A program made the position numbers and the translations under genes. From an uncultured Pelagibacteraceae bacterium (lineage in GTDB: Bacteria > Pseudomonadota > Alphaproteobacteria > Pelagibacterales > Pelagibacteraceae): a DNA stretch of 64,000 bases. Positions 1 through 13,294 of the stretch are shown here, piece by piece. The notes beneath the pieces were generated by a model. It had not been told where the DNA came from. It saw only the letters and a program-made list of their open reading frames with translations, and did no database searches. The stretch is from the NCBI GenBank assembly GCA_902582105.1, contig CACHQT010000001.1, positions 10,681-74,680 of the forward strand. The letters run 5' to 3'. The stretch's first letter is position 1. The number at the start of each line of letters is the position of its first letter.

Positions 1-21
1 TAAAAATAAAATATCAACATT

Positions 22-1089
22 TTAATTTATAGATTTATAAACTTTCAAAGTTTCGGTTGCACACTTGTACCAATTAAACATTTTAATTCTTTTGTAACCT
101 TTTCTAATTTTTTTTTTTTGAAGAATAGGAGATTTTAATATTTTTTCTAATTTTTGCTTGATATCAATTATATTTTTAGGATTAAAAAAAATGGGGACGT
201 CACCACATACTTCCCTAATGGGTTTAATATTACTTGATGCTACCAGACAACCACATCTCATAGCTTCCAATGGTGGCAATCCAAAACCTTCATATAAACT
301 TGGATAAACAAGCAAACTTGCATCGGAATATATTTTATTGAGTTTTTTTTCATCTCCAGAAATATGCTGAATTTTATCTTCGATTTTTAAGTGTTTGATT
401 TTTTTTTCTTCTTCAATTGAAAATTTTTCATATCCAAAACACACAATGCCATAATTTTTTTTTAAAAATTCTGATCTACTATAAGCATTAATAAAATTTT
501 TGAAATTTTTGTACCCATCTCGTGCTCCAACGTAAACAATAATTTTTTTTTTTCTTACGTTAATTTTGTTTTGTTTTACACCCAGGTAAATAACTTTAAT
601 TTTATTTTCTTCAACATTATAATATTTTACTAAATCATTTTTGGTGCTTTTAGAAATACAAATAATTTTGCTTGCATTATTTATTAAGTATTTTTTATCA
701 AATTTTTTATTAAATAATTTTAATTTTTCATGAGTTAAATCGTATACAGTTAATATAAATGGTATACTAGTCATTTTAGCTAAAAAACTATTGTAATACG
801 TTAAATGTATTAAAGATGGTTTTTTAAAAAAGATGTAAAAAATAGTTAAAACATCATTAATGAGGTAGAAAAATTTTGTACAAAAGCTTGGTATTTTTTT
901 CAATTTAATAAAGTTTATTTTACTATCATTGTGAAAATTTAAGTTTTCATTAATTGAAATTGGAGAAAAAATTGTGGAACTGAATTTATTTTTAATTAAA
1001 TTTCTATTCAATTCACATATATATTTTGATATTCCTCCATTCTTTTGGTGAAGAAAAATTGAATGATCAAATAATATTTTTTTTATCAT
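22..1089 (-). CDS. Glycosyltransferase family 4 (GT-B fold)
   Basis: N-terminal GGISKY, TVYDL and C-terminal YPSLYEGFGLPPLEAM (EX7E) motifs. Confidence 0.9.
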   Translation of the reverse strand: MIKKILFDHSIFLHQKNGGISKYICELNRNLIKNKFSSTIFSPISINENLNFHNDSKINFIKLKKIPSFCTKFFYLINDVLTIFYIFFKKPSLIHLTYYNSFLAKMTSIPFILTVYDLTHEKLKLFNKKFDKKYLINNASKIICISKSTKNDLVKYYNVEENKIKVIYLGVKQNKINVRKKKIIVYVGARDGYKNFKNFINAYSRSEFLKKNYGIVCFGYEKFSIEEEKKIKHLKIEDKIQHISGDEKKLNKIYSDASLLVYPSLYEGFGLPPLEAMRCGCLVASSNIKPIREVCGDVPIFFNPKNIIDIKQKLEKILKSPILQKKKIRKGYKRIKMFNWYKCATETLKVYKSIN

Positions 1090-1090
1090 T

Positions 1091-1894
1091 TTAAAATATC
1101 ATTTTATTAAGATTTGAGTTTATTTTAAAATTTATAATTTTTTTTAATTTTAAATTATCAGATAGCAAGCATGTAGTTTTTGAAATATCTTCGAAATTTG
1201 CATCTTTTTTATATTTTTTTAAAATTATTTTAGCTATATCTTTTAAATATGTTTTTCTACCTGAGCCAATATTAATAATTCCAGAAAATTTTTTTCTCAT
1301 TAATACAAAAATTATATTAGAAATATCTTCCATTGAAATAAAGTCTCTATAATGATTTAAGTTTTTTAATTTAAGTTTTTTTTGAGTTTTTTTTATTTTG
1401 TTTTTAAGATCAGGTACTAAATAATTTTGTTTTTGATTTTTGTTAGTAGTGCTAAATATTCTTCCTATACAATAATTTATTTTCCCTTCTAACTTTTTTA
1501 CTATAAATTTTTCTGAAAGAAATTTTGTTTTTCCATAAAATGATATCGGCTCAATCTTTCCATTTTCATTTATTCTTTTTTTTGATGATTTATAAACATG
1601 GGATGTTGAAGCAAAAAAAAACCATTTAATATTATTTTTGAGAGCTATATTAACCAAATTTTTTGTACCTAAATAATTTACCTCATAGGCTTTTTTTTTA
1701 TTTTTTTTTACTATTTTTATTGGCACAATTGCAGCAAGGTGAAAAATTGCGTCTATTTTTTTATTTTTAAACCAACTTTTAATATCAGATTTTTTTCTAA
1801 TATCTCCTCTAAATCTATAAATTTTATTTGACTTATTTATATTTATTAAAGTTTTGCCAAGACTTCCTGAATATCCAGTAATACCGATTTTCAT
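1091..1894 (-). CDS. NAD-dependent epimerase/dehydratase (extended SDR)
   Basis: ITGYSGSLG Rossmann motif, HLAA, ASTSHVY, YGKTK catalytic YxxxK, RDFI. Confidence 0.88.
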   Translation of the reverse strand: MKIGITGYSGSLGKTLININKSNKIYRFRGDIRKKSDIKSWFKNKKIDAIFHLAAIVPIKIVKKNKKKAYEVNYLGTKNLVNIALKNNIKWFFFASTSHVYKSSKKRINENGKIEPISFYGKTKFLSEKFIVKKLEGKINYCIGRIFSTTNKNQKQNYLVPDLKNKIKKTQKKLKLKNLNHYRDFISMEDISNIIFVLMRKKFSGIINIGSGRKTYLKDIAKIILKKYKKDANFEDISKTTCLLSDNLKLKKIINFKINSNLNKMIF

Positions 1895-2517
1895 TTAATT
1901 ATTGATTTATATATTTTTCTAATTTTGTTTTTTACTGAATTTTCTCTTAATACTAATTTTTTCTTTTTACTTAAATTATGTTTCTTTTTTATAATTTTAC
2001 ACATTCCAGAGGATATGAAGCAGAATTCTAAGTCAAAATTATCTTGATTGTCATGATATATGCTCAGAATTCTATCAAAGGTTTCCTTATTGTTTATTTC
2101 ACAATAAAAATTGCTTCTTTCTTCGGTGCTTAAATAGGGTAACCAGGAAATATCATCAATATACAATATACCATTTAAATTCAATTTTTTGTAATAGTGA
2201 TAAAATATTTTTTCTACATGGTCCGCTTCATGAAGCGAGTCTATATAAATTACATCAATTGCTTTTGGTAATTTTTCTTCTAGAAATTCAAAATTATCAT
2301 CTCTACTTTTTATAAATTTCCAATTTGAGTCTGTAAATAAATTTGAATAATCATCAATATCAATCGAGTATAATTTGCCCCCTTTTTTTTTACAAATTTC
2401 TAAAAATAGTTCTGTAGATCTTCCTTCTTTTACACCAAATTCTACAATTTTTGGTTCGTCAAATTTTAATAAATCTTCTTTTAAAAAAGTATCTATTTTA
2501 TATAGGTAGTCTGACAT
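1891..2517 (-). CDS. Class I SAM-dependent methyltransferase (Methyltransf_24-like), probable glycan O-methyltransferase
   Basis: IVEFGVKEGRST motif I, LYSIDI, IYIDSLH, LNGILYIDD. Confidence 0.8.
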   Translation of the reverse strand: MSDYLYKIDTFLKEDLLKFDEPKIVEFGVKEGRSTELFLEICKKKGGKLYSIDIDDYSNLFTDSNWKFIKSRDDNFEFLEEKLPKAIDVIYIDSLHEADHVEKIFYHYYKKLNLNGILYIDDISWLPYLSTEERSNFYCEINNKETFDRILSIYHDNQDNFDLEFCFISSGMCKIIKKKHNLSKKKKLVLRENSVKNKIRKIYKSIIK

Positions 2518-2586
2518 ATTCAGATGTAAATTACTTGTTTCAGGTTTTTAAATATAATATCAATTATTTTATCTAATATCTTTTAA

Positions 2587-3387
2587 ATGAGTAAAATAAA
2601 AAAGCAAAAAAAAATTTTAATAAAAAAAAAGGTAAATAAACCTTTCTTTTCGGTAATTACAGTCGTTAAAAATGCAGAAAAGGACATTTTGAAAACAATC
2701 AAAAGCTTAAAAAATCAAAAATTTAAAAATTTTGAATACATCGTGGTTGATGGCATGTCTGAAGACAAAACAATAAAAAACATATTAAAAAATAAAAAAA
2801 TTATAAATTTTTTTATTTCTGAGAAAGATAAAGGAATTTATTTTGCTATGAATAAAGCACTTAAATTTGTAAATGGAGAAGTAATTGTTTTTATTAATGC
2901 AGGGGATATTTTTGTAAAAAATGCTCTACTAAAAATTTATAAAAAATTTAGAAAAAATTCAGAAATAGATTTTGTTTTTGGAACAGTTAAAAGGCATTAT
3001 TTAGAGTCAACTATTTTAAAATATGGATTTGATATTAATAGGTTAAAATACAATTTTGATTTTGCAACATCTCATTCAACAGGTTTTTTTATTAAAAAAA
3101 AATCTATGAAGATTTTAGGGAAATACAATACAATTTTTAAATGTTCTGCTGATTATGATTTATACTATAGAGCGCTTATAAAATATAAATTAAAAGGAGA
3201 TTATACCAGTAAAAAAGATTTAATCGGCATATTTAGTAGTGGAGGTTATTCAAGCAAAATAGGCTTTTTTGATCAATTAATCGAAGAGACAAAAATTAGA
3301 ATTCATAACAACCAAAATTTAATTTATGTTCTTCTAATATTTTTAAATGCTATGATTAAACATTGTTTTAAAAAATTAGTTAAATAA
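2587..3387 (+). CDS. Glycosyltransferase family 2
   Basis: SVITVVKN, EYIVVDGMSED, DKGIYFAMNK, FINAGD, SADYD. Confidence 0.9.
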   Translation: MSKIKKQKKILIKKKVNKPFFSVITVVKNAEKDILKTIKSLKNQKFKNFEYIVVDGMSEDKTIKNILKNKKIINFFISEKDKGIYFAMNKALKFVNGEVIVFINAGDIFVKNALLKIYKKFRKNSEIDFVFGTVKRHYLESTILKYGFDINRLKYNFDFATSHSTGFFIKKKSMKILGKYNTIFKCSADYDLYYRALIKYKLKGDYTSKKDLIGIFSSGGYSSKIGFFDQLIEETKIRIHNNQNLIYVLLIFLNAMIKHCFKKLVK

Positions 3388-4371
3388 TTATTTAATATAA
3401 TTTTTACTTATTTCACTTAAATCAAAATATAATTTATAACATTCATCATAAATTTCTTTTTCATAATTAATAGAAATATCTTTTACTGTGTTTTTAAAAT
3501 GATGATTTTTAGAATATTTTATTTTTAAGCTATCTAATAGATAAAAAAAAGACTTTTTATCTTTACATAAATTTTCATAGTTTATTAAGTAAATGTTATT
3601 AAACTTTTTAATTTCTATAAGTATTTTTTTATAAAATAATAACCATTGTTCTAACCAATAATTAATATCTTTTATATCGATAAATTTTTTTGGAATATTC
3701 CATGATTTGTGATTTTTCCCAAATTCATAATGGCCTAAATAATTCATATATTTCAAGATAAAATTATCTTTATTTTGAAGGTTAAAGAAATTTTTATTTT
3801 GTGTCATCAAAGAGTTAGCATGTTGAATAGGGTCTCTGAAGGGAATAAAAAAAAAACAATTTTTTATTTTTGAATTTATTAAATCAATTCTATTAAAATT
3901 ATTATTATTTTTACTTAAATAATTTTTTTTTTCGTATTTTAACTTGATCAAATTAATATATTGAGAAAAGTTTTCTAAGATTTCTTCTTTATTGTATGTT
4001 GATAAAAAAACCTCATCAAGTGCTTCTGGAGAGTTTATACTATATTTAATGCCATCATTATGCGGGCGCATAAACTCAGTACTAGATTTTTTATTGAATA
4101 AAAACTTTCCTAAATTTGGTGACATTAAAAAAGGAAGATCGTTATAAGTTAAAGATGAATATTCATCTGAATCATAAAACATATTTAAAATCGTTGTTGT
4201 GCCAGATCTTGGCAGACTTGTAATAAATATATTTTTTGAGGAAACGTTATCAAATTTCTTACTATTTTTAAAAATCAATGTTTCTAATTCAAATAAAGAT
4301 TTTTTTATAAATTTATTACCTAAACAAATTTCGTGTAAAATTTTTTGGACTTTATTATAATTTACTTGCAT
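3388..4371 (-). CDS. PAPS-dependent sulfotransferase
   Basis: 5'-PSB loop IFITSLPRSGTT, 3'-PB motif PFRDPIQHANS, YENL; no signal peptide. Confidence 0.85.
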   Translation of the reverse strand: MQVNYNKVQKILHEICLGNKFIKKSLFELETLIFKNSKKFDNVSSKNIFITSLPRSGTTTILNMFYDSDEYSSLTYNDLPFLMSPNLGKFLFNKKSSTEFMRPHNDGIKYSINSPEALDEVFLSTYNKEEILENFSQYINLIKLKYEKKNYLSKNNNNFNRIDLINSKIKNCFFFIPFRDPIQHANSLMTQNKNFFNLQNKDNFILKYMNYLGHYEFGKNHKSWNIPKKFIDIKDINYWLEQWLLFYKKILIEIKKFNNIYLINYENLCKDKKSFFYLLDSLKIKYSKNHHFKNTVKDISINYEKEIYDECYKLYFDLSEISKNYIK

Positions 4372-4718
4372 ATTTTTTTTCTCAAATATGTATAAATAAA
4401 AGATACAATAAACATTATAAGCATATTTTCAATTTTTATAAGATTTATATAAAAATCATTGTTTATGCTCTTTATAAAAAATAATAAAATAGCAACTAGA
4501 AATATTAGTATTAAAATTTTCGAAGAATTGAGTAAAATATTTTTTATTAATTTAAAATATTTTTGCTCAAATTCTTGGCTGTTTCTTGAGTTTTTTATTG
4601 TTAATATAAATTCTTTTAGTAAATTAAATTGATTAACAAATACTAATGAAATTTTGAATTTCAAAAATATTTCAATAAAAAAAATACATATTATAATTGC
4701 AATTAAATAAAATATCAC
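4362..4718 (-). CDS. Small membrane protein (about 3 TM), unknown function
   Basis: Three hydrophobic stretches; GTG start overlaps the upstream stop (GTGA); its end overlaps the sulfotransferase start. Confidence 0.7.
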   Translation of the reverse strand: MIFYLIAIIICIFFIEIFLKFKISLVFVNQFNLLKEFILTIKNSRNSQEFEQKYFKLIKNILLNSSKILILIFLVAILLFFIKSINNDFYINLIKIENMLIMFIVSFIYTYLRKKICK

Positions 4719-4933
4719 TTTTTGTTATTTTCATTTTTTTTTTTCTTAGAATTAAGGTATCTTTTAATTGGAAACCACAAGATACCAAATATTAAAGAAA
4801 AAATTGCTATAATAATTCCTATTGTTGCCGCAACAACTCCACCAGCCATTCCCGGACCAATATAAGCATTAGCATCAATAATATTAAGATTTAAAACTAA
4901 AAAAGAATAGAGTAAAAATTTTAGTTTATACAT
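4715..4933 (-). CDS. 72-aa micro-protein: signal peptide (ANA|), YIGPG motif, one TM helix, basic tail
   Basis: MYKLKFLL...IDANA-YIGPGMAGG...ILWFPIKRYLNSKKKK; overlaps both neighbouring genes. Confidence 0.75.
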   Translation of the reverse strand: MYKLKFLLYSFLVLNLNIIDANAYIGPGMAGGVVAATIGIIIAIFSLIFGILWFPIKRYLNSKKKKNENNKK

Positions 4934-6303
4934 TTTTTTTCATTTATAATTTTTTTTATTTTAAAAGCTTTATCTTCGTCTTCAACGATACTGCTCCATC
5001 TTAAAACATATACTTTACCATTATTTGCTTTATTAATATAACTCCAAATTAATTCATCTTTGTTATTTATATAAAGTATACGACCATGCTCTTGCTCTTC
5101 AACAATGAAAGATTTATCATTTAGGTACTGTATTAGACCACCAAATCTTGTACCAAAATTAGAATTTTCCAATATTTTAGAATGCATTTTTTTAAATTCT
5201 TTTGTATCAAAACTATAATGAACAATTGAGCTCACTTGGTTAATCAATTCAAATCCATTTGTTGTATGAAAACTTTCATTATTAAATATTGAAATAGTTT
5301 TATTATCAATAATATCAACATCGTGCTGCCCCGATATTAAGCTTGATTGAATAACATTAATTATTTTACCTGTGGATGGTCTAAAATGAAAAATTGTAGA
5401 TAAGTTTCTACAACTTAAAAATATGTCATCTTTTTTCCAATATAAAGTGTTATTAAAAGTTGGTTGTAGGTCGTTTAAATGACAAAAATCATTATTAATT
5501 GGGTTTTGCAAGTGTGTAAAAATTAAATTCTGATAATTGTTTTCTATCAGGATTTCTGAAAATGATTTTTCATATAATATTTTGCCATTAGAAGAAACTT
5601 TTACAACTCCATCATCCGACCAATCGCTTGATTTTTTTCCAATATATTTTTCATTAATTTTTGATAAAACACCATGTGTTGCCCAGTAATTATTTTCAAA
5701 ATTTTTTTCCAGTGAATGGTGAAAATATTTATCAATTACCCAGTTTACACGATTACATATATCTATATTAAACAAAGGTGAGCTTGAATTAAAAATTAAA
5801 TTTCCATTTTCTTCAATATAAGGATGCCACAAAAACATTCTATTTTCACTTAAATCTATTTCTGTAGTAGGATATTTTTTTTTATAATCATTGCTTAAAT
5901 TTTTTAACAAAGACTTTGAGTCTGGTTCGTATCTATGAATTACTTTAAAATTATTTAAATCAACAACTTCAACAACTCCTTTTTTTTTATCGCCATCATA
6001 ACGTGATAAGATAAGCAATTTATTTTTAAGTATTTCGTTATTCTTAAAAAAAGTGAATCCATTTTTTTCTTTAATATTCTTCATTGATTTATCCACAAAA
6101 TGATTTCCAGGATCATTAGTAGTTCTTAAAATTTTAATAAAATTTAAAGGTATATCCGAAATATAATTAGCAACTATTTGTAAGTTTTGAAGCTTTTTTC
6201 CACCAGATGCCGAATATTTTAAAAAACCACCAAAAAGAATTAAAGAAATAAAAAATATTAAAATTAAAAGGTAAAGTATCCAAATTTCAATTTTTTTAAA
6301 CAT
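4921..6303 (-). CDS. Membrane-anchored periplasmic arylsulfotransferase (ASST-like beta-propeller)
   Basis: N-terminal TM anchor; FHHS, CHLNDL, FLSCRNLS and GQHDVD motifs match the His-containing motifs of the arylsulfotransferase family. Confidence 0.75.
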   Translation of the reverse strand: MFKKIEIWILYLLILIFFISLILFGGFLKYSASGGKKLQNLQIVANYISDIPLNFIKILRTTNDPGNHFVDKSMKNIKEKNGFTFFKNNEILKNKLLILSRYDGDKKKGVVEVVDLNNFKVIHRYEPDSKSLLKNLSNDYKKKYPTTEIDLSENRMFLWHPYIEENGNLIFNSSSPLFNIDICNRVNWVIDKYFHHSLEKNFENNYWATHGVLSKINEKYIGKKSSDWSDDGVVKVSSNGKILYEKSFSEILIENNYQNLIFTHLQNPINNDFCHLNDLQPTFNNTLYWKKDDIFLSCRNLSTIFHFRPSTGKIINVIQSSLISGQHDVDIIDNKTISIFNNESFHTTNGFELINQVSSIVHYSFDTKEFKKMHSKILENSNFGTRFGGLIQYLNDKSFIVEEQEHGRILYINNKDELIWSYINKANNGKVYVLRWSSIVEDEDKAFKIKKIINEKKCIN

Positions 6304-6373
6304 TAAATTCCTTTTTATTTTTGTTTATTAATTTAGTTAAATTAAATTTAAATACCATAAAAAAAAATTTTGT

Positions 6374-7120
6374 TTATTTTATTAAAGAATTAAATGATAG
6401 TCTTATTAAATAAAAAAAAGATTTAAAAAAATTATATTTTAATTCACGATTATAAAGTCTAAAACCATCTAAAAGTTTTTGTGAAATAGATGAAGACAAG
6501 GAATTTCTTGTTTTTCTCCAACTTGATAAAATCTTATCAAATCCTTTAATTTTATTATTTTTTTTATATAAATTGAGCCATAATAGATAATCTTCTTTAG
6601 TTTTCATATCGCTAAATTTAACATTATTTACAATCCTTTTTTTTATCAACACAGTTGATAACCCAATATAACAATGAGTTAATAAAATTTTGTAATTAAT
6701 CTTTTTCTTTATCCTTCTTGATTTTATAATTTTTCCTTCTTCATCAATTATATTGTATGAAGTAAAAGAAAAATCCAGATTATTTTTTATCATGAATTTT
6801 AATTGCTCTGTAAGTTTATTTTTTTTCCAAACATCATCAGAATCACAGAAAGCCAAATATTCTCCTTTTGATTTTTTTATTCCAATATTTCTAGATAAGC
6901 CTACCCCTAAATTTTTTTTGTTTGCAAAAATTTTTATATTTTTATAATTTTGAATATAATTTCTGATGTAATTTAAATCTGATTTATTTTCATCATCATA
7001 AATAATTATAATTTCATAATTTTTAAAACTTTGGTTTAGAATTGAATTGATAGTTTCTTTAAAAAATTTTCTTTTTTTAAAAAAGGGAATTATAATACTA
7101 ATTTTAGGTTTTTTTTTCAT
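6374..7120 (-). CDS. Glycosyltransferase family 2 (TuaG-like)
   Basis: ISIIIPFF, NLGVGLSRN, FCDSDD (DxD), KEDY; start placed at ATG 7120 (MKKKPKIS). Confidence 0.88.
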   Translation of the reverse strand: MKKKPKISIIIPFFKKRKFFKETINSILNQSFKNYEIIIIYDDENKSDLNYIRNYIQNYKNIKIFANKKNLGVGLSRNIGIKKSKGEYLAFCDSDDVWKKNKLTEQLKFMIKNNLDFSFTSYNIIDEEGKIIKSRRIKKKINYKILLTHCYIGLSTVLIKKRIVNNVKFSDMKTKEDYLLWLNLYKKNNKIKGFDKILSSWRKTRNSLSSSISQKLLDGFRLYNRELKYNFFKSFFYLIRLSFNSLIK

Positions 7121-7121
7121 A

Positions 7122-8378
7122 TTAATAATAAACAAAATATGTAGTTAAAATAAATGCTGTTGAAAATAAGTATAGAGGAATTAAAAGTTTTTTCATTTTA
7201 GATAAAATAAAATCAATATATCTTGATTTTACTAATCCAAAAATAAATAAATAAAAAAGTGGGTCCAAGTATTTTTGAAATATGTAATTAGATGGAAAAC
7301 ATAAAAATAAACATATCAAAAGAAAATAATTTTGTTTTAAGTTGTTTCTAAAAAGAAAATGAAGAACTAAAGATGTAATTAATGCTATGATAATTAAAAA
7401 AAATTGCGAATTAAAATATACTTTATCTATTATTTTTTTTACAATACCACCACCTAAATTATTTTGATTAAAAGATATTAAATTTTCATATATAAAAATA
7501 TCTACGAGATAGATAGACAAAAAAATAAATGAAAATAATAAAAAGGTGAGAAAGTTCTTTTTATAATATTTTATTAATTGATTTATATAAAAGATGATGT
7601 AAGGAATTAAATAAAAAAAAAGAATTGATAATAAAATAATAAAATTTGTAGAATAATTAAATATGTTATGTCCTGAATCTAAATTAATTAATCTTAAAAA
7701 TTCATAATCTTGAATTATATAAATAAAATAAATTATCGCTGGTACTGAAATTAAAAATGAGAAAGTAATAATTTTTAAAATATTTTTTGTATTTTGGTTT
7801 TTGAAATAAATAAATATATAAAAAAAATAAAATGGGAAATAATAGTATCTAAAGTAACAGCATAGCGAGAGAAAAAATATACTATAATAACAAAAGTTCA
7901 AATTTTCATTTTTTTTAAACTTCAAATAAAATACTATAGATAGTCCTAAAAAAATCAGACTCAAGTTGTCTCCTAATAACCATATTGATGAAGATCTAAA
8001 ATATGGAGAAATAAATATGATTAGTGAAAATAAATATATGTAAATATTATCTCTATTTTTAAGTTTTAAGATTTGGTAAAAAATTAAAGGTAACGAAGAT
8101 GATATCAAAATATAAAATATTTTAACGTTGTCTAAATTTCCAAATATTTTTAGTAATTTTCCTGCCAAAATATAAAACACTGGCGAATGAACAACAAAAC
8201 CTAAGTTGGATAAAAATAATTTAAATCCATCATTTAAACTATTGCTAAATGCTATTACAGTAGGAATAAGATAATCATGATCTAGTTTTGCCCCACCAGA
8301 TAAATTTTCTTTAAGGTATAATCCAGTGAGTAGTGAAAAAAGCCCAATTAAAAATGAAACTGTTTTTATTTGATACAT
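7122..8378 (-). CDS. Polytopic membrane protein, putative GT-C fold glycosyltransferase
   Basis: About 11-12 hydrophobic segments; first loop GGAKLDHDY...HSPVFY, SPYFRSSS, late FQKYLDP motif; start placed at ATG 8378. Confidence 0.55.
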   Translation of the reverse strand: MYQIKTVSFLIGLFSLLTGLYLKENLSGGAKLDHDYLIPTVIAFSNSLNDGFKLFLSNLGFVVHSPVFYILAGKLLKIFGNLDNVKIFYILISSSLPLIFYQILKLKNRDNIYIYLFSLIIFISPYFRSSSIWLLGDNLSLIFLGLSIVFYLKFKKNENLNFCYYSIFFLSLCCYFRYYYFPFYFFYIFIYFKNQNTKNILKIITFSFLISVPAIIYFIYIIQDYEFLRLINLDSGHNIFNYSTNFIILLSILFFYLIPYIIFYINQLIKYYKKNFLTFLLFSFIFLSIYLVDIFIYENLISFNQNNLGGGIVKKIIDKVYFNSQFFLIIIALITSLVLHFLFRNNLKQNYFLLICLFLCFPSNYIFQKYLDPLFYLFIFGLVKSRYIDFILSKMKKLLIPLYLFSTAFILTTYFVYY

Positions 8379-8447
8379 TAAATAATTTATAGTAAACAAA
8401 AATTATACTAAGTTTAGTATTAGTAATAACTTATAAACCTTAAATTA

Positions 8448-9836
8448 ATGTATTTAAAACATAATAGCAAAATTTTTATAATTATTCTTATTGCAGTAAT
8501 AATAAATATTTTTATATCAAATTATAACATTTCTAAATATGACAACTATAGAACACTCTCTAACGGTCAAAAGGTAAACTCATTAATATTTTCAGATATT
8601 TACTCAATATGGTCAAAATCAGATGACTTTGTAAAAAAAATACGTGAGAAGGAAGGATTTGTAAATTCTCTACCAATTTATGATCGTTCTTTCTTACCAT
8701 CTATACTTGTTGGATTATATTATCTTGCAATAAACGAGGATATATCAGTTGAAGAAAATTCTGACAATATAAAAATTTTTAAAAAAGACAATTATAAAAT
8801 TGGTTTTTTAATTATACAAATATTATTTTTTTATTTCTCGTTATTTTATTTTAGTCAAAAATTAAAAAAATATATTAACGAAAAAAACCTTTTTTTAATC
8901 GTTTTTTTTTTATCTTTTGAGCCTACTTTAATTCAATGGCATTCAAGTTTTTGGTCTGAGAGTATTTTTTTATCACTTAATTTAATTTTAATGGCAAAAG
9001 TTATTGAGTTCAAAAAAGGCTTTTTTCAAAATTTAACGATAGGTATTATCCTAGGTTTCATATTTGCTCAAAGGGCTGCATCAGTTTTTTTATTTATCCC
9101 TTTAATTATTTTTTTCATTTTTGTTTATAAAAAAAATTTTAAACCTATAATTTACCTTTTGACTGGTTATTTATCGATTATACTTTTAATTGGAAACTTA
9201 CATTATATTAAAAAAGGTGTATTTTTTATACTACCTTATCATAGCAACCAATATTCAAATTACCACTATATGTATGATGATATTTTTTCAAAAGCCACCC
9301 AGATTTCTAAAGATCAGTCATATAATATTAAAATTAAAAAAGAAAAAGAGTGGAGGAAAAATAATCTTATACAGGATAATGAATTTAAAGATAAATTTAA
9401 AATCATAAATTATAGAAATAACGAATTTTTAAAATTAGTTATTAAATATCCTTTTACCTCTTTTAAATATTTAGTATATAAATCTTGTCAAGCCTCAATC
9501 CTAGATCCAATTTATGTTCAAAAATTTTTTAGTTTAGATAAGTCAATTAAAGACTATTATAAGGATCTTAATAAAGATTTAAAAATAAGAATAATTTATT
9601 CATCAATTATTTATTTACTTTGTTTATTAGGATTTCTTAATCTATTGTACAAAATTTTTTTTATGAAAAAAATTAATAATTATTATTATTTTTTAATTCT
9701 TAATATCTTAATTATTTTATATTATATGATATTTACTGGGGGTTATGGTGTTTCTAGATATTTTGCACCATTGTTAATTAATTATGTTTTTTTCCTCAAC
9801 ATGGGTTTGGAATTTTTTAATAAAAAAAAACTTTAA
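8448..9836 (+). CDS. Polytopic membrane protein, putative ArnT/PMT-like GT-C glycosyltransferase
   Basis: Large first periplasmic loop with SD...W, then EP...WSESIF, AQR and C-terminal SRYFAP motifs typical of lipid-linked sugar transferases. Confidence 0.6.
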   Translation: MYLKHNSKIFIIILIAVIINIFISNYNISKYDNYRTLSNGQKVNSLIFSDIYSIWSKSDDFVKKIREKEGFVNSLPIYDRSFLPSILVGLYYLAINEDISVEENSDNIKIFKKDNYKIGFLIIQILFFYFSLFYFSQKLKKYINEKNLFLIVFFLSFEPTLIQWHSSFWSESIFLSLNLILMAKVIEFKKGFFQNLTIGIILGFIFAQRAASVFLFIPLIIFFIFVYKKNFKPIIYLLTGYLSIILLIGNLHYIKKGVFFILPYHSNQYSNYHYMYDDIFSKATQISKDQSYNIKIKKEKEWRKNNLIQDNEFKDKFKIINYRNNEFLKLVIKYPFTSFKYLVYKSCQASILDPIYVQKFFSLDKSIKDYYKDLNKDLKIRIIYSSIIYLLCLLGFLNLLYKIFFMKKINNYYYFLILNILIILYYMIFTGGYGVSRYFAPLLINYVFFLNMGLEFFNKKKL

Positions 9837-9859
9837 ATTAATTGATTATTAATTTTATA

Positions 9860-9888
9860 TTTACACTAGCTCTATACATCTACATAAT
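9860..9888 (+). promoter_or_regulatory. Putative sigma70 promoter of gmd
   Basis: TTTACA (9860-9865), 17-nt spacer, CATAAT (9883-9888). Confidence 0.5.
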
Positions 9889-9892
9889 TTAT

Positions 9893-9934
9893 ATATATAA
9901 ATAATTAATTGAATTATTTTAATTATTTATATAT
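9893..9934. repeat. Perfect 16-bp inverted repeat with 10-nt spacer
   Basis: ATATATAAATAATTAA (9893-9908) and TTAATTATTTATATAT (9919-9934). Confidence 0.8.
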
Positions 9935-9955
9935 TGCTAATAGAAATATTTTTAA

Positions 9956-11014
9956 ATGCGAAAAACAGCTATAATTACAGGTATAACAGGACAGGACGGA
10001 TCATATCTAGCTGAGTTTCTACTAAAAAAAGGCTACATTGTTCACGGTATTAAAAGAAAATCCTCATCTTTTAATACAAATAGAATTGACCATATATTTG
10101 AAGACCCAAAATACAGATCAAAATTTTTTTTACATTATGGTGACTTAACTGATACAGATACTTTGACTAAAATTATTAACAAAGTTAAACCACAAGAAAT
10201 TTATAATTTAGGTGCGCAAAGTCACGTAGGTGTTTCATTTGAAAATCCAGTTTATACAGCAGAAGTTAATGGAATTGGATCTTTAAGAATATTAGAAATT
10301 ATAAGATTTTTAGGATTAAAAGCAAAATTTTATCAAGCTACAACATCAGAACTTTTTGGTGAGAAAGGTAAAAAAAATAAATTTAACGAAAAATCAGAAT
10401 TTAATCCTAAATCTCCTTATGGTGTATCTAAATTATTTGCTCATCATATTACAAAAGTTTACAGGGAATCTTACGGAATTTTTGCATCTAGTGGGATTTT
10501 ATTTAACCATGAAAGCCCAAGAAGAGGTGAAACATTTGTTACAAGAAAAATAACAATGTTTTTAGCAAAAAGAATTTTAGGTAGCAGAGAAGTTTTAAAT
10601 TTGGGAAATATTTATGCAAAGAGAGACTGGGGTCATGCAAAAGATTATGTAGAAATGCAATGGAAGATTATGCAACAAAAAAGACCTGATGATTTTGTAA
10701 TATCAACAGATAATACTTATAGTGTTAAACAGTTTATAAACCTTGCATGTAAAATATTAAAAATGAAAATAACCTGGGAGGGTAGAGGCCTTAACGAAAA
10801 AGCTTACGAGATAAAAAAAAATAAAAAAATATTATTAATTAAAATAAATAAAAAATATTTTAGGCCTTTAGATATTGAATACCTAAGAGGAGACTCATCT
10901 AAAGCTAAAAAATTATTAAAATTTAAGGCAAAATATAAATTTGAAGACTTGGTAAAAGACATGTTGTATTCAGATATAAAAGCCCAAAGACAAAATTTTA
11001 AGAAATTTGTTTAG
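9956..11014 (+). CDS. gmd: GDP-mannose 4,6-dehydratase
   Basis: ITGITGQDGSYLAEFLL, NLGAQSHV, SPYGVSK, FNHESPRRGETFVTRKI, RDWGHAKDYV. Confidence 0.97.
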   Translation: MRKTAIITGITGQDGSYLAEFLLKKGYIVHGIKRKSSSFNTNRIDHIFEDPKYRSKFFLHYGDLTDTDTLTKIINKVKPQEIYNLGAQSHVGVSFENPVYTAEVNGIGSLRILEIIRFLGLKAKFYQATTSELFGEKGKKNKFNEKSEFNPKSPYGVSKLFAHHITKVYRESYGIFASSGILFNHESPRRGETFVTRKITMFLAKRILGSREVLNLGNIYAKRDWGHAKDYVEMQWKIMQQKRPDDFVISTDNTYSVKQFINLACKILKMKITWEGRGLNEKAYEIKKNKKILLIKINKKYFRPLDIEYLRGDSSKAKKLLKFKAKYKFEDLVKDMLYSDIKAQRQNFKKFV

Positions 11015-11031
11015 TTATCTAATTTAAAATT

Positions 11032-12063
11032 GTGAATTATTTTTTTTTAATACTGGTTGTTTCATTTATTTGTTTTTATCTGTTAAATAATTCACTAAAA
11101 AAATACAAAATACTCGTTGATAATATAAAGTTTTCAGATCATAAAAAATTTACTGAAGAAAATAACGTTCCTTTTTCAGGGGGTATATTTTTTTTATTTG
11201 TAATATTTTATTTGTCTGAGAGTTTAAATTATATAAATTTTACTATTTTACTTCTTGTTTTTTTTCTGGGAATTTTTTCAGATTTAAACAAAATAACATC
11301 TCCAATGTATAGGATTTTGATACAGTCATTAATTATCTTAAGTTATATAGTTGTTAATGATTTGGTGGTTATAAATACAAGAATTGATTTATTTGATGAT
11401 ATTCTGAATAATTATAAAATTGTTGCAATATCTTTTACTTTTTTTTGTATAATAGTGTTGATTAATGGTACAAATTTTATTGATGGTGTTAATAATTTAG
11501 CTTCTGGATATTATTTTGTTGTCTTTTTAAATCTTATATTTTTAAGTAAAATGATTGAACTTAATATTGATCAATATTTTTTGATACAAATTTTAGCTTT
11601 TATTACGATTTTCCTAATATTTAATTTTTTTTCTCAATCTTTTTTAGGAGATAGTGGCTCTTATTTGTTAGGATTTTTTGTAGGATTCTATTTAATATCA
11701 TTTTATATAAATCAAAATAATATTATATCACCATATTACATCATAGTACTTTTATGGTACCCAGCCTATGAAAATCTTTTTTCTATAATGAGAAGACTTT
11801 TTTTTGAAAGAAAAAAAGTAAAAAAAGCTGATAACCTACATTTACATCATTTAGTATATAAATTTTTGTCAAAATTTTTAGGAAAAAATAAGTATGTAAA
11901 CTCTTTGACAGGAATATTGATAAATTTTATTAATTTAATAATAATTTTTCCTGGTAATTTTTATGCATATAAAACAAATATATTAGTAGGAATTATTTTT
12001 GTTAGTCTAGTAGTATATAATTCTGCATATTTCTATCTTAGATTTAAAACTTATAAATCTTGA
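11032..12063 (+). CDS. Polyprenyl-phosphate sugar-1-phosphate transferase (WecA/MraY family)
   Basis: PFSGG, LGIFSD, NGTNFIDGVN, FLGDSGS, ADNLHLHH; GTG start. Confidence 0.88.
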   Translation: MNYFFLILVVSFICFYLLNNSLKKYKILVDNIKFSDHKKFTEENNVPFSGGIFFLFVIFYLSESLNYINFTILLLVFFLGIFSDLNKITSPMYRILIQSLIILSYIVVNDLVVINTRIDLFDDILNNYKIVAISFTFFCIIVLINGTNFIDGVNNLASGYYFVVFLNLIFLSKMIELNIDQYFLIQILAFITIFLIFNFFSQSFLGDSGSYLLGFFVGFYLISFYINQNNIISPYYIIVLLWYPAYENLFSIMRRLFFERKKVKKADNLHLHHLVYKFLSKFLGKNKYVNSLTGILINFINLIIIFPGNFYAYKTNILVGIIFVSLVVYNSAYFYLRFKTYKS

Positions 12064-12076
12064 AAGATTAAATAAA

Positions 12077-13294
12077 CTATCGATTGCATCTTAAAATAAA
12101 CGATAAGTTTATCCAAAAAATTGTTGCAGTATATGTTGTGAAAAAACTTCCAGAAGGAATTAAAGGTAATATTGTTGTTAGTATAAATAGAGAACCAAAT
12201 AGGAATAAAAGATCTTTATTTTTTATGTAAAGCTTAATACCTTTAACAATAAAATATATTAATATAGTAAATAAAAAAATATACCCAAACAAACCCATCT
12301 CAGAGAGCATTTCAAAATGTATTTGGTGTGGATGAGTTGCTCCACCATTTATATTTTCAATTTTATTATATTCTTTTCCATAACTTACATTCCTAAAATT
12401 TTTAATTCCAATTCCAAAAATTGGATTTTTTTTAAATATCTCAAAAGCAGTATTGTAATGACTAAGATGTTGATTAGAGCTAATTAAACTTTTGTAGTTA
12501 GTTATTTCAGTCTTATTAAATATGTGATGTATAAATCTACTGTTAAAGGCTGGAGTTGATTTAATAAATATGAAAGCAAACATCATAAATAAACCTATTA
12601 AAGAAAGTTTTTTTAAAATAGAATTTTTATCGATGAAGAGTAAAAAGATTGAAATTATAAATAAACTTTTTATAAAATTTGCTTTTTCTCCTATTAATAA
12701 TGAAGAAAGTAAAAATAGAATTATAAAAAAAAAATAATATTTTTTATGATTTTTCAATACAATCCATAAAGAAATCAGCATGAATCCAAAATAATATCCA
12801 CCAATTTTTAATTCATCGCCAGAGAAACTGGCCAAACGTCCAGCATAGTTTGATTTGTTGCCTATAATGTTAAATCCAATAAAAAATTCAAATATAATAT
12901 CAAACGAAGTTATCATAAAAACAATAAACCATAAATTGATTATCGGTTTTTGATACCTGCCGTTTTCTAAAGAAAAATAATATGCAATTGCATATGCTAA
13001 AAGTGGAAATCTAATAAAACCTACCGCTCTAATTATTCCGTCTGAAGTTTGAGTTAAATATATACTATTTAAGATTATGTATATAAAAAAAGCAAATAAA
13101 ATATAAAAATCTTTCTCTAAAAAAAAATAATATTTTTTTTGAACACATTCTAAAATAAATAAAATTATAATTAAAATTATAAATATGTTTGTAATAGTTG
13201 AGCCAATAAAAAGCGATATAGGTAATAAAAGAATTAAATATAGTGTTTTATTCTTAAAATATAAGAATTTATAAAAATATTCATTTAAAATCAT
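12077..13294 (-). CDS. O-antigen ligase family protein (WaaL/Wzy_C)
   Basis: Polytopic; NPIFGIGIKNFR...THPHQIHFEMLSEMGLFG periplasmic signature. Confidence 0.85.
   Translation of the reverse strand: MILNEYFYKFLYFKNKTLYLILLLPISLFIGSTITNIFIILIIILFILECVQKKYYFFLEKDFYILFAFFIYIILNSIYLTQTSDGIIRAVGFIRFPLLAYAIAYYFSLENGRYQKPIINLWFIVFMITSFDIIFEFFIGFNIIGNKSNYAGRLASFSGDELKIGGYYFGFMLISLWIVLKNHKKYYFFFIILFLLSSLLIGEKANFIKSLFIISIFLLFIDKNSILKKLSLIGLFMMFAFIFIKSTPAFNSRFIHHIFNKTEITNYKSLISSNQHLSHYNTAFEIFKKNPIFGIGIKNFRNVSYGKEYNKIENINGGATHPHQIHFEMLSEMGLFGYIFLFTILIYFIVKGIKLYIKNKDLLFLFGSLFILTTILPLIPSGSFFTTYTATIFWINLSFILRCNR

Follow-up and report, generated by a model that had tools for sequence, protein, structure and literature searches.

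A conserved four-gene cassette of marine and halophilic bacteria that combines an ASST-type propeller, a PAPS-type sulfotransferase and two small membrane proteins, and its possible role in a sulfate relay across the membrane

In a stretch of 64,000 nucleotides from an uncultured Pelagibacteraceae bacterium (GenBank assembly GCA_902582105.1, contig CACHQT010000001.1, positions 10,681 to 74,680; the whole stretch is called the window here), four open reading frames (ORFs) on the minus strand overlap successively by 13, 4 and 10 nt, exactly as a preliminary description of this DNA had stated. They encode, in the order in which they are read, a 460-amino-acid (460-aa) protein of the arylsulfate sulfotransferase (ASST) type, a 72-aa microprotein, a 118-aa protein with three transmembrane (TM) segments and a 327-aa sulfotransferase of the type that uses 3'-phosphoadenosine 5'-phosphosulfate (PAPS) as the donor (Table 1). 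We are highly confident that these genes make up a real, conserved and undescribed sulfation cassette, and the best explanation for it is that the four genes are one functional unit for the sulfation of the cell envelope. Both enzymes are ordinary members of their families and what is new is their combination, the membrane topology and the two small proteins. As to how the cassette works, the reading that we favor, to which we give a probability of roughly 0.55, is a two-step sulfuryl relay across the membrane. The inner sulfotransferase would use PAPS to form a phenolic sulfate ester, this ester would become available on the outer face, and the outer ASST-type enzyme would take the sulfuryl group onto His327 in a ping-pong reaction and then transfer it to an extracytoplasmic acceptor that is most likely a glycan, either secreted or on the cell surface.

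The four-gene arrangement is not due to chance, as dozens of unrelated genomes contain these genes as well, in most cases with the same overlaps. With the propeller of the 460-aa protein 31 loci were found, two of which were uninformative (a 211-bp fragment and a contig ending at the gene), and the order ASST gene, microprotein gene, gene for the 118-aa protein (the anchor, see below) and sulfotransferase gene was present in 27 of the 29 informative loci, mostly with overlapping stops and starts. In one locus (L003) the microprotein and sulfotransferase genes are divergent from the ASST gene, and a contig of Marinamargulisbacteria (L025) stops at the ASST gene. The carriers of the cassette are Pelagibacterales, SAR116, Prochlorococcus (including the closed genome of MIT 9314), SAR86 and other Gammaproteobacteria, and those that are named are marine or halophilic without exception. 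When an even sample of 400 Pseudomonadota was examined, the microprotein was found in 14 genomes besides the window's own, and in 13 of these 14 genes of both the ASST type and the PAPS type adjoin it, in three gene orders and at 42-66% G+C. Thus, the co-occurrence across SAR11 and other bacteria that the preliminary description had anticipated is seen in both sets, in the second one for at least the ASST, microprotein and sulfotransferase genes. All four genes are also present in genome G592 and in G428, a closed genome from the genus of the source bacterium. The 87 neighboring genes in the 13 Pseudomonadota loci had no common theme (isocitrate dehydrogenase, KdpA, MdoG and TGT are among their products), and since the neighbors differ between genomes and are unrelated housekeeping genes, the cassette is a self-contained module that often lies outside glycan clusters. 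Its distribution in Pelagibacteraceae is patchy (5 of 200 other genomes), as is expected for island genes. No description of the cassette was found in the full text of the literature, where the pangenome papers on SAR11 and Prochlorococcus merely list 'arylsulfotransferase' and 'sulfotransferases' among island genes and PF14269, the family of the 460-aa protein, appears only in catalogues.

The 460-aa protein matches PF14269 (Arylsulfotran_2) with 87.5 bits, where the Pfam cut-off is 27, and some of its homologues also match PF05935, the family of the classical ASSTs. The AlphaFold2 model built with 45 homologues (predicted local distance difference test score, pLDDT, 90.4) has a TM helix, a linker helix and, from about residue 80, a six-bladed beta-propeller, which is the fold of the ASST and Cpz4 enzymes. 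When this model was compared with solved structures using VIA-align, Cpz4 was nearest (9kf6 and 9kf4 with Z of 27.8 and 27.7; 317 residues of 9kf6 aligned at a root-mean-square deviation of 3.6), the entries of E. coli ASST came second (Z 23.0-23.8, with 3ets at 23.8) and unrelated six-bladed propellers scored 22.5 or less, while the sequence identity to Cpz4 and ASST was merely 13-14%. Using hhalign against six classical PF05935 ASSTs the propeller was aligned with a probability of 74% and an E value of 2.8e-5. In the local alignment at low MAC (maximum accuracy) from which the histidines were mapped, the global alignment having given none, H195/H196, H275-x-N277, S297-x-R299 and Q-H327 align with the conserved H, H-x-N, S-x-R and Q-H of these ASSTs. 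The equivalent residues in E. coli ASST, numbered by a constant offset of 21-23 residues and not by direct alignment, are His252, His356/Asn358, Arg374 and the sulfo-histidine His436, the active-site residues of this enzyme (EcAST) being those listed in PMC13426309. The aligned catalytic set was invariant in all 45 homologues with the exception of R299, which was Arg in 37 and Lys in 4 of the 45. The FHH, HxND and QHD motifs that had been pointed out earlier are therefore present and invariant, in a modelled propeller with conserved histidines.

A hydropathy scan, which was used for all four proteins, found a single TM segment at residues 7-25 of the 460-aa protein, ahead of which Lys3 is invariant and Lys4 is nearly invariant in the homologues, and the Cys pair C183/C458 is conserved in them. 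The two lysines before the TM helix, together with a Cys pair that fits an oxidising compartment, are consistent with a type-II membrane-anchored protein with its N-terminus inside and its propeller predicted to be outside, in line with the earlier claim that this enzyme is membrane-anchored and faces outward. The protein thus appears to be a propeller of the Cpz4/ASST type with catalytic histidines, and sulfuryl-transfer activity is predicted for it from the model. One could argue that it has this fold but serves as a binding protein or a hydrolase instead, and that its likeness to ASST is structural only, given the identity of 13-14%, the moderate hhalign probability and the fact that profile and sequence searches of the PDB with the propeller retrieved neither ASST nor Cpz4. 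We consider this very improbable because the residues aligned with the ASST nucleophile and the sulfate-binding set are invariant in 45 homologues, ASST and Cpz4 outrank all other propellers, and the gene is strictly linked to that of another sulfotransferase.

Compared to the ASST/AssT of E. coli CFT073 (3ELQ and 3ETS, Z 23.5-23.8), the 460-aa protein has in common the six-bladed propeller, the extracytoplasmic location (predicted) and the aligned His, His-x-Asn, Arg/Lys and Q-His. It differs in that it belongs to PF14269 and not to PF05935, lacks the N-terminal beta-sandwich domain and is membrane-anchored, whereas the E. coli enzyme has a cleaved signal peptide. The partners differ as well, being the Dsb oxidases DsbL and DsbI for E. 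coli ASST and a PAPS sulfotransferase and membrane proteins in the cassette. Classical ASST genes were seen in 3 of the 400 sampled Pseudomonadota as against 14 of 400 for the cassette, and one gammaproteobacterial genome (G340, loci L073, L076, L077 and L078) has four classical PF05935 paralogues of 592-622 aa. No relative of the 460-aa propeller was found in viral contigs.

The 327-aa protein matches PF13469 (Sulfotransfer_3) with 31.5 bits (Pfam cut-off 27) and with 62.8 bits in the fused form described below; hence hidden Markov model searches agree with both of the families, ASST-like and PAPS-dependent, that had been proposed from the motifs. It has no TM segment. Its AlphaFold2 model (pLDDT 89.1) was closest in VIA-align to Stf9 (Z 15.9), Stf1 (Z 15.1) and TPST1 and TPST2 (Z about 14), with identities of 11-15%, the best 50 structural matches were PAPS sulfotransferases throughout, and the best PDB match of its profile was TPST1 (E 1.7e-5). 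The 5'-phosphosulfate-binding loop and the 3'-phosphate-binding motif that are expected of PAPS-dependent sulfotransferases are both found in it, with R55, G57, T58 and T59 of the former and R179, P181 and S187 of the latter invariant among 20 orthologues, so that the PRSGTT and RDP motifs noted earlier in a soluble enzyme are present and conserved. By its fold in the model it is a PAPS-type sulfotransferase, its PAPS motifs are intact, and it is predicted to be cytoplasmic. It shares the PAPS-sulfotransferase fold and both binding motifs with TPST1/2 and the mycobacterial Stf1 and Stf9, and differs from these enzymes by an additional helical segment at the N-terminus and by a three-TM anchor of its own, which is sometimes fused to it.

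This anchor is the 118-aa protein, which has three TM segments and a Lys-rich first loop and for which an N-out, C-in topology is predicted. An ORF of 117-123 aa occupies its position in the canonical loci, and most of the homologues have an ISDHWKE loop motif that is absent from the window's copy. In Pelagibacterium halotolerans (L050) and in locus L056 the 118-aa protein forms an N-terminal domain within a sulfotransferase of 500 aa. This fused form of about 450-517 aa dominates the search of the protein collection, with more than 100 clusters from Devosia, Chelativorans, Halomonas, Paracoccus, Tateyamaria, Roseovarius, Jannaschia and others. Since the two are one polypeptide in so many bacteria (the Rosetta-stone argument), the 118-aa protein is predicted to be a membrane anchor that keeps the sulfotransferase at the membrane's inner face. 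A search of the ESM Atlas with the 118-aa protein gave unnamed clusters only, and Pfam has no family for it or for the microprotein.

The 72-aa microprotein has a variable, signal-peptide-like start that ends in A-N-A, followed by Y24-I-G-P-G, a Gly-rich linker, a TM helix, P-I-K-R and a Lys-rich tail that is predicted to be cytoplasmic. Across 23 cassette copies Y24, G26, P27, G28, G39, P55, K57 and R58 are invariant and the motif reads Y-[ILV]-G-P-G; the mature form has a single TM segment at residues 33-51. In a profile search of 1.84 billion protein representatives there were 2359 clusters at E<=1e-3, 684 of them at E<=1e-10, and the best 150 of the 2359 were all 60-138 aa long and all had Y[ILVF]GPG. 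Of these best 150 relatives, 148 have Ala, Ser or Gly at position -1 and 92 have Ala at position -3, with AxA in 85. Because this is the pattern of signal peptidase I at -1 and -3, we infer that cleavage takes place before the Tyr, which would leave Tyr24 as the predicted N-terminus on the outer face. No recurrent fusions were found; as the 13 that were seen are singletons on short contigs, the microprotein stands alone as a protein.

A precedent for two-step sulfation is the caprazamycin system of Streptomyces sp. MK730-62F2, which consists of the PAPS-dependent sulfotransferase Cpz8, the type III polyketide synthase Cpz6 and the ASST-type enzyme Cpz4. Cpz8 sulfates a phenol (a pyrone) with PAPS, and Cpz4 passes the sulfate from the phenolic sulfate to a sugar hydroxyl. 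Like this system, the cassette encodes PAPS-type and ASST-type sulfotransferases together, and Cpz4 is similar in length to the 460-aa protein. Unlike it, the cassette has no polyketide synthase or phenol-making gene and has two small membrane proteins instead, its context is envelope decoration and not antibiotic synthesis, and, with the ASST-type enzyme outside and the PAPS enzyme tethered inside, the relay would have to cross the membrane. As it has no dedicated phenol synthase, we do not count the cassette among systems of the Cpz type, and suggest by analogy that it works like the Cpz8/Cpz4 relay. Given the Cpz precedent, with the PAPS enzyme inside and the ASST-type enzyme outside, a two-step logic across the membrane is the simplest reading. 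The preliminary description had proposed that sulfate is relayed from PAPS through a membrane carrier to the periplasmic ASST. The relay itself gains a chemical precedent from Cpz8/Cpz6/Cpz4 and a structural one from DltX (below), but the 118-aa protein looks like an anchor for the sulfotransferase and not like a carrier.

Which phenol would carry the sulfate is a more tentative matter. ASST-type enzymes follow a ping-pong mechanism with a sulfo-His intermediate, their donors being aryl (phenolic) sulfates, and they are known to sulfate Tyr peptides, including those with an N-terminal Tyr such as Leu-enkephalin. Since ASST chemistry needs a phenolic donor and Tyr24 of the microprotein is the sole conserved phenol that the cassette would place on the outer face, Tyr24 is the best candidate for the sulfuryl shuttle, although we hold this part of the relay to be doubtful. 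The N-terminal Tyr would be O-sulfated by the tethered PAPS enzyme, either ahead of export, in the course of it or by way of a complex that includes the anchor, and the sulfo-Tyr might then be the physiological donor of the outer ASST-type enzyme, a suggestion that we make with the same reserve. A Tyr microprotein of comparable design is established in the D-alanylation of teichoic acids (DltB-DltX-DltD), where DltX is an acyl shuttle. Like DltX, the cassette microprotein is a single-pass protein whose extracytoplasmic end (predicted) has an invariant Tyr, and its gene lies between those of an inner and an outer transferase. In DltX the Tyr is in a C-terminal FxYxxF and the acyl group comes through the funnel of DltB, an MBOAT protein, whereas in the cassette the Tyr is in a predicted N-terminal Y-I-G-P-G and the group would be a sulfuryl. 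Pfam found no MBOAT among the cassette proteins and no sequence relationship between the microprotein and DltX was found, and so the likeness is one of analogy only.

The invariant Tyr, the self-contained nature of the cassette and the finding that the best sequence matches of the sulfotransferase among solved structures are tyrosylprotein sulfotransferases would also fit another explanation, in which the microprotein is the end product, a peptide with a sulfated N-terminal Tyr that is displayed or released as a signal or a charge modifier. For this one enzyme would suffice and the second, outer ping-pong transferase is left without an explanation; moreover, two variants of the cassette point to other acceptors, which makes this explanation quite improbable to us. 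In the first variant two tandem ASST paralogues precede one microprotein gene and one sulfotransferase gene (L049:6575-9167 and L055:7678-10402, the anchor gene being identifiable in L049 only), which fits one donor system serving several transferases. In the second variant (L006:7580-9421) a gene for a 614-aa AT3-SGNH acyltransferase, a putative glycan acetyltransferase, is inserted between the microprotein and anchor genes. This insertion provides a link of the cassette to glycans, and so do the sulfotransferase homologues that were named from Halomonas maura and H. stenophila in the search of the protein collection, a search that covered the proteins themselves. Mauran, the exopolysaccharide of H. 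maura, has a sulfate content of 6.5%, and H. stenophila has been described as a producer of sulphated exopolysaccharide (PMC6268429).

That the acceptor is a glycan made by the neighboring genes, as proposed earlier, fits the window, in which genes for a family 2 glycosyltransferase (GT2) and a multi-TM protein lie upstream on the same strand, but it is not general since the neighbors in the 13 Pseudomonadota loci are unrelated. The position of the window's cassette in line with glycosyltransferase genes would also be understandable if the two enzymes carried out independent sulfations, the inner one on a lipid-linked sugar and the outer propeller at a second site with some other aryl sulfate from the environment or from metabolism, the two being linked only by a common polymer. 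PAPS-type polysaccharide sulfotransferases normally act directly on sugars (review PMC11625862), and the fold of the 327-aa protein is as near to the mycobacterial Stf enzymes as to TPST. What this explanation leaves unaccounted for is that two dedicated membrane proteins are strictly linked to the enzymes, that the sulfotransferase is tethered by fusion and that there are cassettes away from glycan clusters; furthermore, oligotrophic sea water would seem to offer no obvious supply of free aryl sulfate donors. We regard it as unlikely.

Several points weigh against the relay and against Tyr24 as its carrier. Beyond the family assignments, the steps of the sulfate transfer are read from the genes. 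The crossing of the membrane by the sulfuryl group is an unproven step for which there is no evident mechanism: the alignment of the 118-aa protein has no invariant residue and this protein is too small for an obvious channel. Each microprotein would deliver one sulfate if its Tyr were sulfated before export, a single use that would be costly. The acceptor of the inner sulfotransferase is not readable from the fold since Stf9, Stf1 and TPST score similarly. One locus (L002) has the ASST and microprotein genes and no sulfotransferase gene within 5 kb. In addition, a distant relative of the microprotein (L061:7322-7516), in which a signal peptide is followed by AYIDPGTGS, has no ASST or sulfotransferase beside it; as this YIDPGTGS relative keeps the Tyr next to an enzyme of the sulfatase family, the Tyr of these microproteins may have a role that is not specific to sulfate. 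The genes that follow it (L061:7524-13725) encode a 454-aa protein of no known family and two membrane proteins, one of 740 aa that has a Sulfatase domain and one of 848 aa, and this arrangement hints at a wider family of Tyr-tipped microproteins that are partnered with outer-face transferases. Both the anchor without an invariant residue and the Tyr retained in a relative outside sulfation would be easier to understand if the relay used a small or lipid-soluble phenol made elsewhere, such as a quinol or an aromatic metabolite, with the small proteins as scaffolds for the enzymes or as an aid in the crossing. The sole characterised two-step sulfation does use a small phenol and not a protein. 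There is, however, no phenol-making gene in the cassette, type III polyketide synthase (PF02797) was not found in the source genome (75.6% complete) and none is in the cassette, and the cassette moves as a four-gene unit between very different bacteria, which favors a shuttle that it supplies itself; for these reasons we give the small phenol a low probability.

The supply of PAPS is a further difficulty for the relay. Sat, CysD and CysNC were not found in the source genome at its completeness of 75.6%, and Sat and CysD were not found in the closed G428, which carries an intact cassette and in which a single 177-aa ORF resembling adenosine 5'-phosphosulfate (APS) kinase is the remaining PAPS-related match. 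Pelagibacteraceae are usually described as lacking assimilatory sulfate reduction. In a SAR116 locus (L029) cysD and a fused cysNC are located at 2322-5772, divergent from the cassette and 229 bp away from it, which further supports the cassette as a donor module for outer transferases. Beside these cysD and cysNC genes there are also genes for a small membrane protein of the SxtJ family and an asparagine synthase. A gene for a 136-aa P-loop protein like APS kinase (L032:1495-1905, on contig 8 of the source genome, G000) was rejected as CysC since the match covers only positions 4-90 of the 152 in the APS kinase model. This gene, which Pelagibacteraceae have conserved, overlaps an ORF containing the motif GRWQPFHDGH, which we take to be NadM-like, that is, of a nicotinamide-nucleotide adenylyltransferase; the partial match and this neighboring motif indicate that the 136-aa protein probably belongs to NAD salvage. 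Full-length APS-kinase genes, some of them cysNC fusions, were present in 35 of 200 Pelagibacteraceae in a patchy, island-like manner. Their frequency in cassette-positive Pelagibacteraceae (3 of 5 versus 32 of 195, p 0.04) was not used since the numbers are too small and not independent.

The natural donors and the roles of bacterial ASSTs have been called poorly understood (PMC13426309), and the cassette supplies a concrete and testable donor pathway for them. Its carriers include the most abundant bacteria of the sea (SAR11, Prochlorococcus, SAR86 and SAR116), which have it in the flexible part of their genomes, and the surface charge of such bacteria has an influence on the adsorption of phages, on grazing and on the make-up of dissolved organic matter. 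Its genes may explain the sulfate on the sulfated exopolysaccharides of Halomonas, and as they are also present in cultured bacteria, genetics is feasible. Should sulfo-Tyr24 prove to be the donor, a protein would for the first time be known to act as a sulfate carrier, and an envelope ASST would for the first time have a defined natural donor. This carrier would then be at work in SAR11, in Prochlorococcus and in producers of sulfated exopolysaccharide, and a protein-Tyr sulfuryl shuttle would extend the principle of DltX from acyl to sulfuryl transfer.

Table 1. Positions in the window of the four cassette genes and of the motifs discussed in the text
Feature	Position	Strand	Basis or remark
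460-aa ASST-type propeller gene	4921..6303	-	PF14269; AlphaFold2; VIA-align
N-terminal helix, residues 4-32, holding the TM anchor	6208..6294	-	hydropathy peak 7-25; helix in AlphaFold2 model
FHH motif, residues 194-196	5716..5724	-	invariant 45/45; H195/H196 align with first conserved sulfate-binding His
H275-L-N277-D278	5470..5481	-	invariant 45/45; aligned with H-x-N (His356/Asn358 by offset)
His327 codon in Q-H-D	5323..5325	-	invariant 45/45; aligned with sulfo-His Q-H (His436 by offset)
72-aa microprotein gene	4715..4933	-	ORF reading; profile search
Tyr24 codon (TAT)	4862..4864	-	predicted first residue of mature microprotein, outer face
118-aa three-TM protein gene	4362..4718	-	GTG start overlapping microprotein TGA (GTGA)
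327-aa PAPS-type sulfotransferase gene	3388..4371	-	PF13469; AlphaFold2; VIA-align
5'-phosphosulfate-binding loop P-R-S-G-T-T, residues 54-59	4195..4212	-	aligned with TPST1 GVPRSGTT
3'-phosphate-binding R179-D-P181, then S187	3829..3837	-	aligned with R-D...S segment of TPST1

In the window the cassette lies in a 12-kb stretch (1-12000) in which the G+C content is 18-23%, compared to about 25-32% across the remaining window. This stretch is a glycan-synthesis island, with genes for a family 4 glycosyltransferase (GT4), epimerases, a methyltransferase, two GT2 enzymes, a GDP-mannose dehydratase and a WecA-like transferase, and a Wzy_C protein of the island is encoded at 12077-13294. Directly upstream of the cassette and on the same strand are one of the GT2 genes (6374-7135) and, in line with it, a multi-TM gene at 7122-8399 (-) whose 425-aa product has about 8-10 hydrophobic segments, and because of these the cassette probably belongs to a longer transcription unit. 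A scan for promoters and terminators in the AT-rich DNA of the window performed no better than it did on shuffled sequences. The gene at 7122-8399 (-) is divergent from another multi-TM gene at 8448-9836 (+), the product of which has 462 aa and likewise about 8-10 hydrophobic segments; neither product has a Pfam match and they are possibly a flippase or polymerase of the island. This exact DNA was detected in marine metagenomes of a dozen studies.

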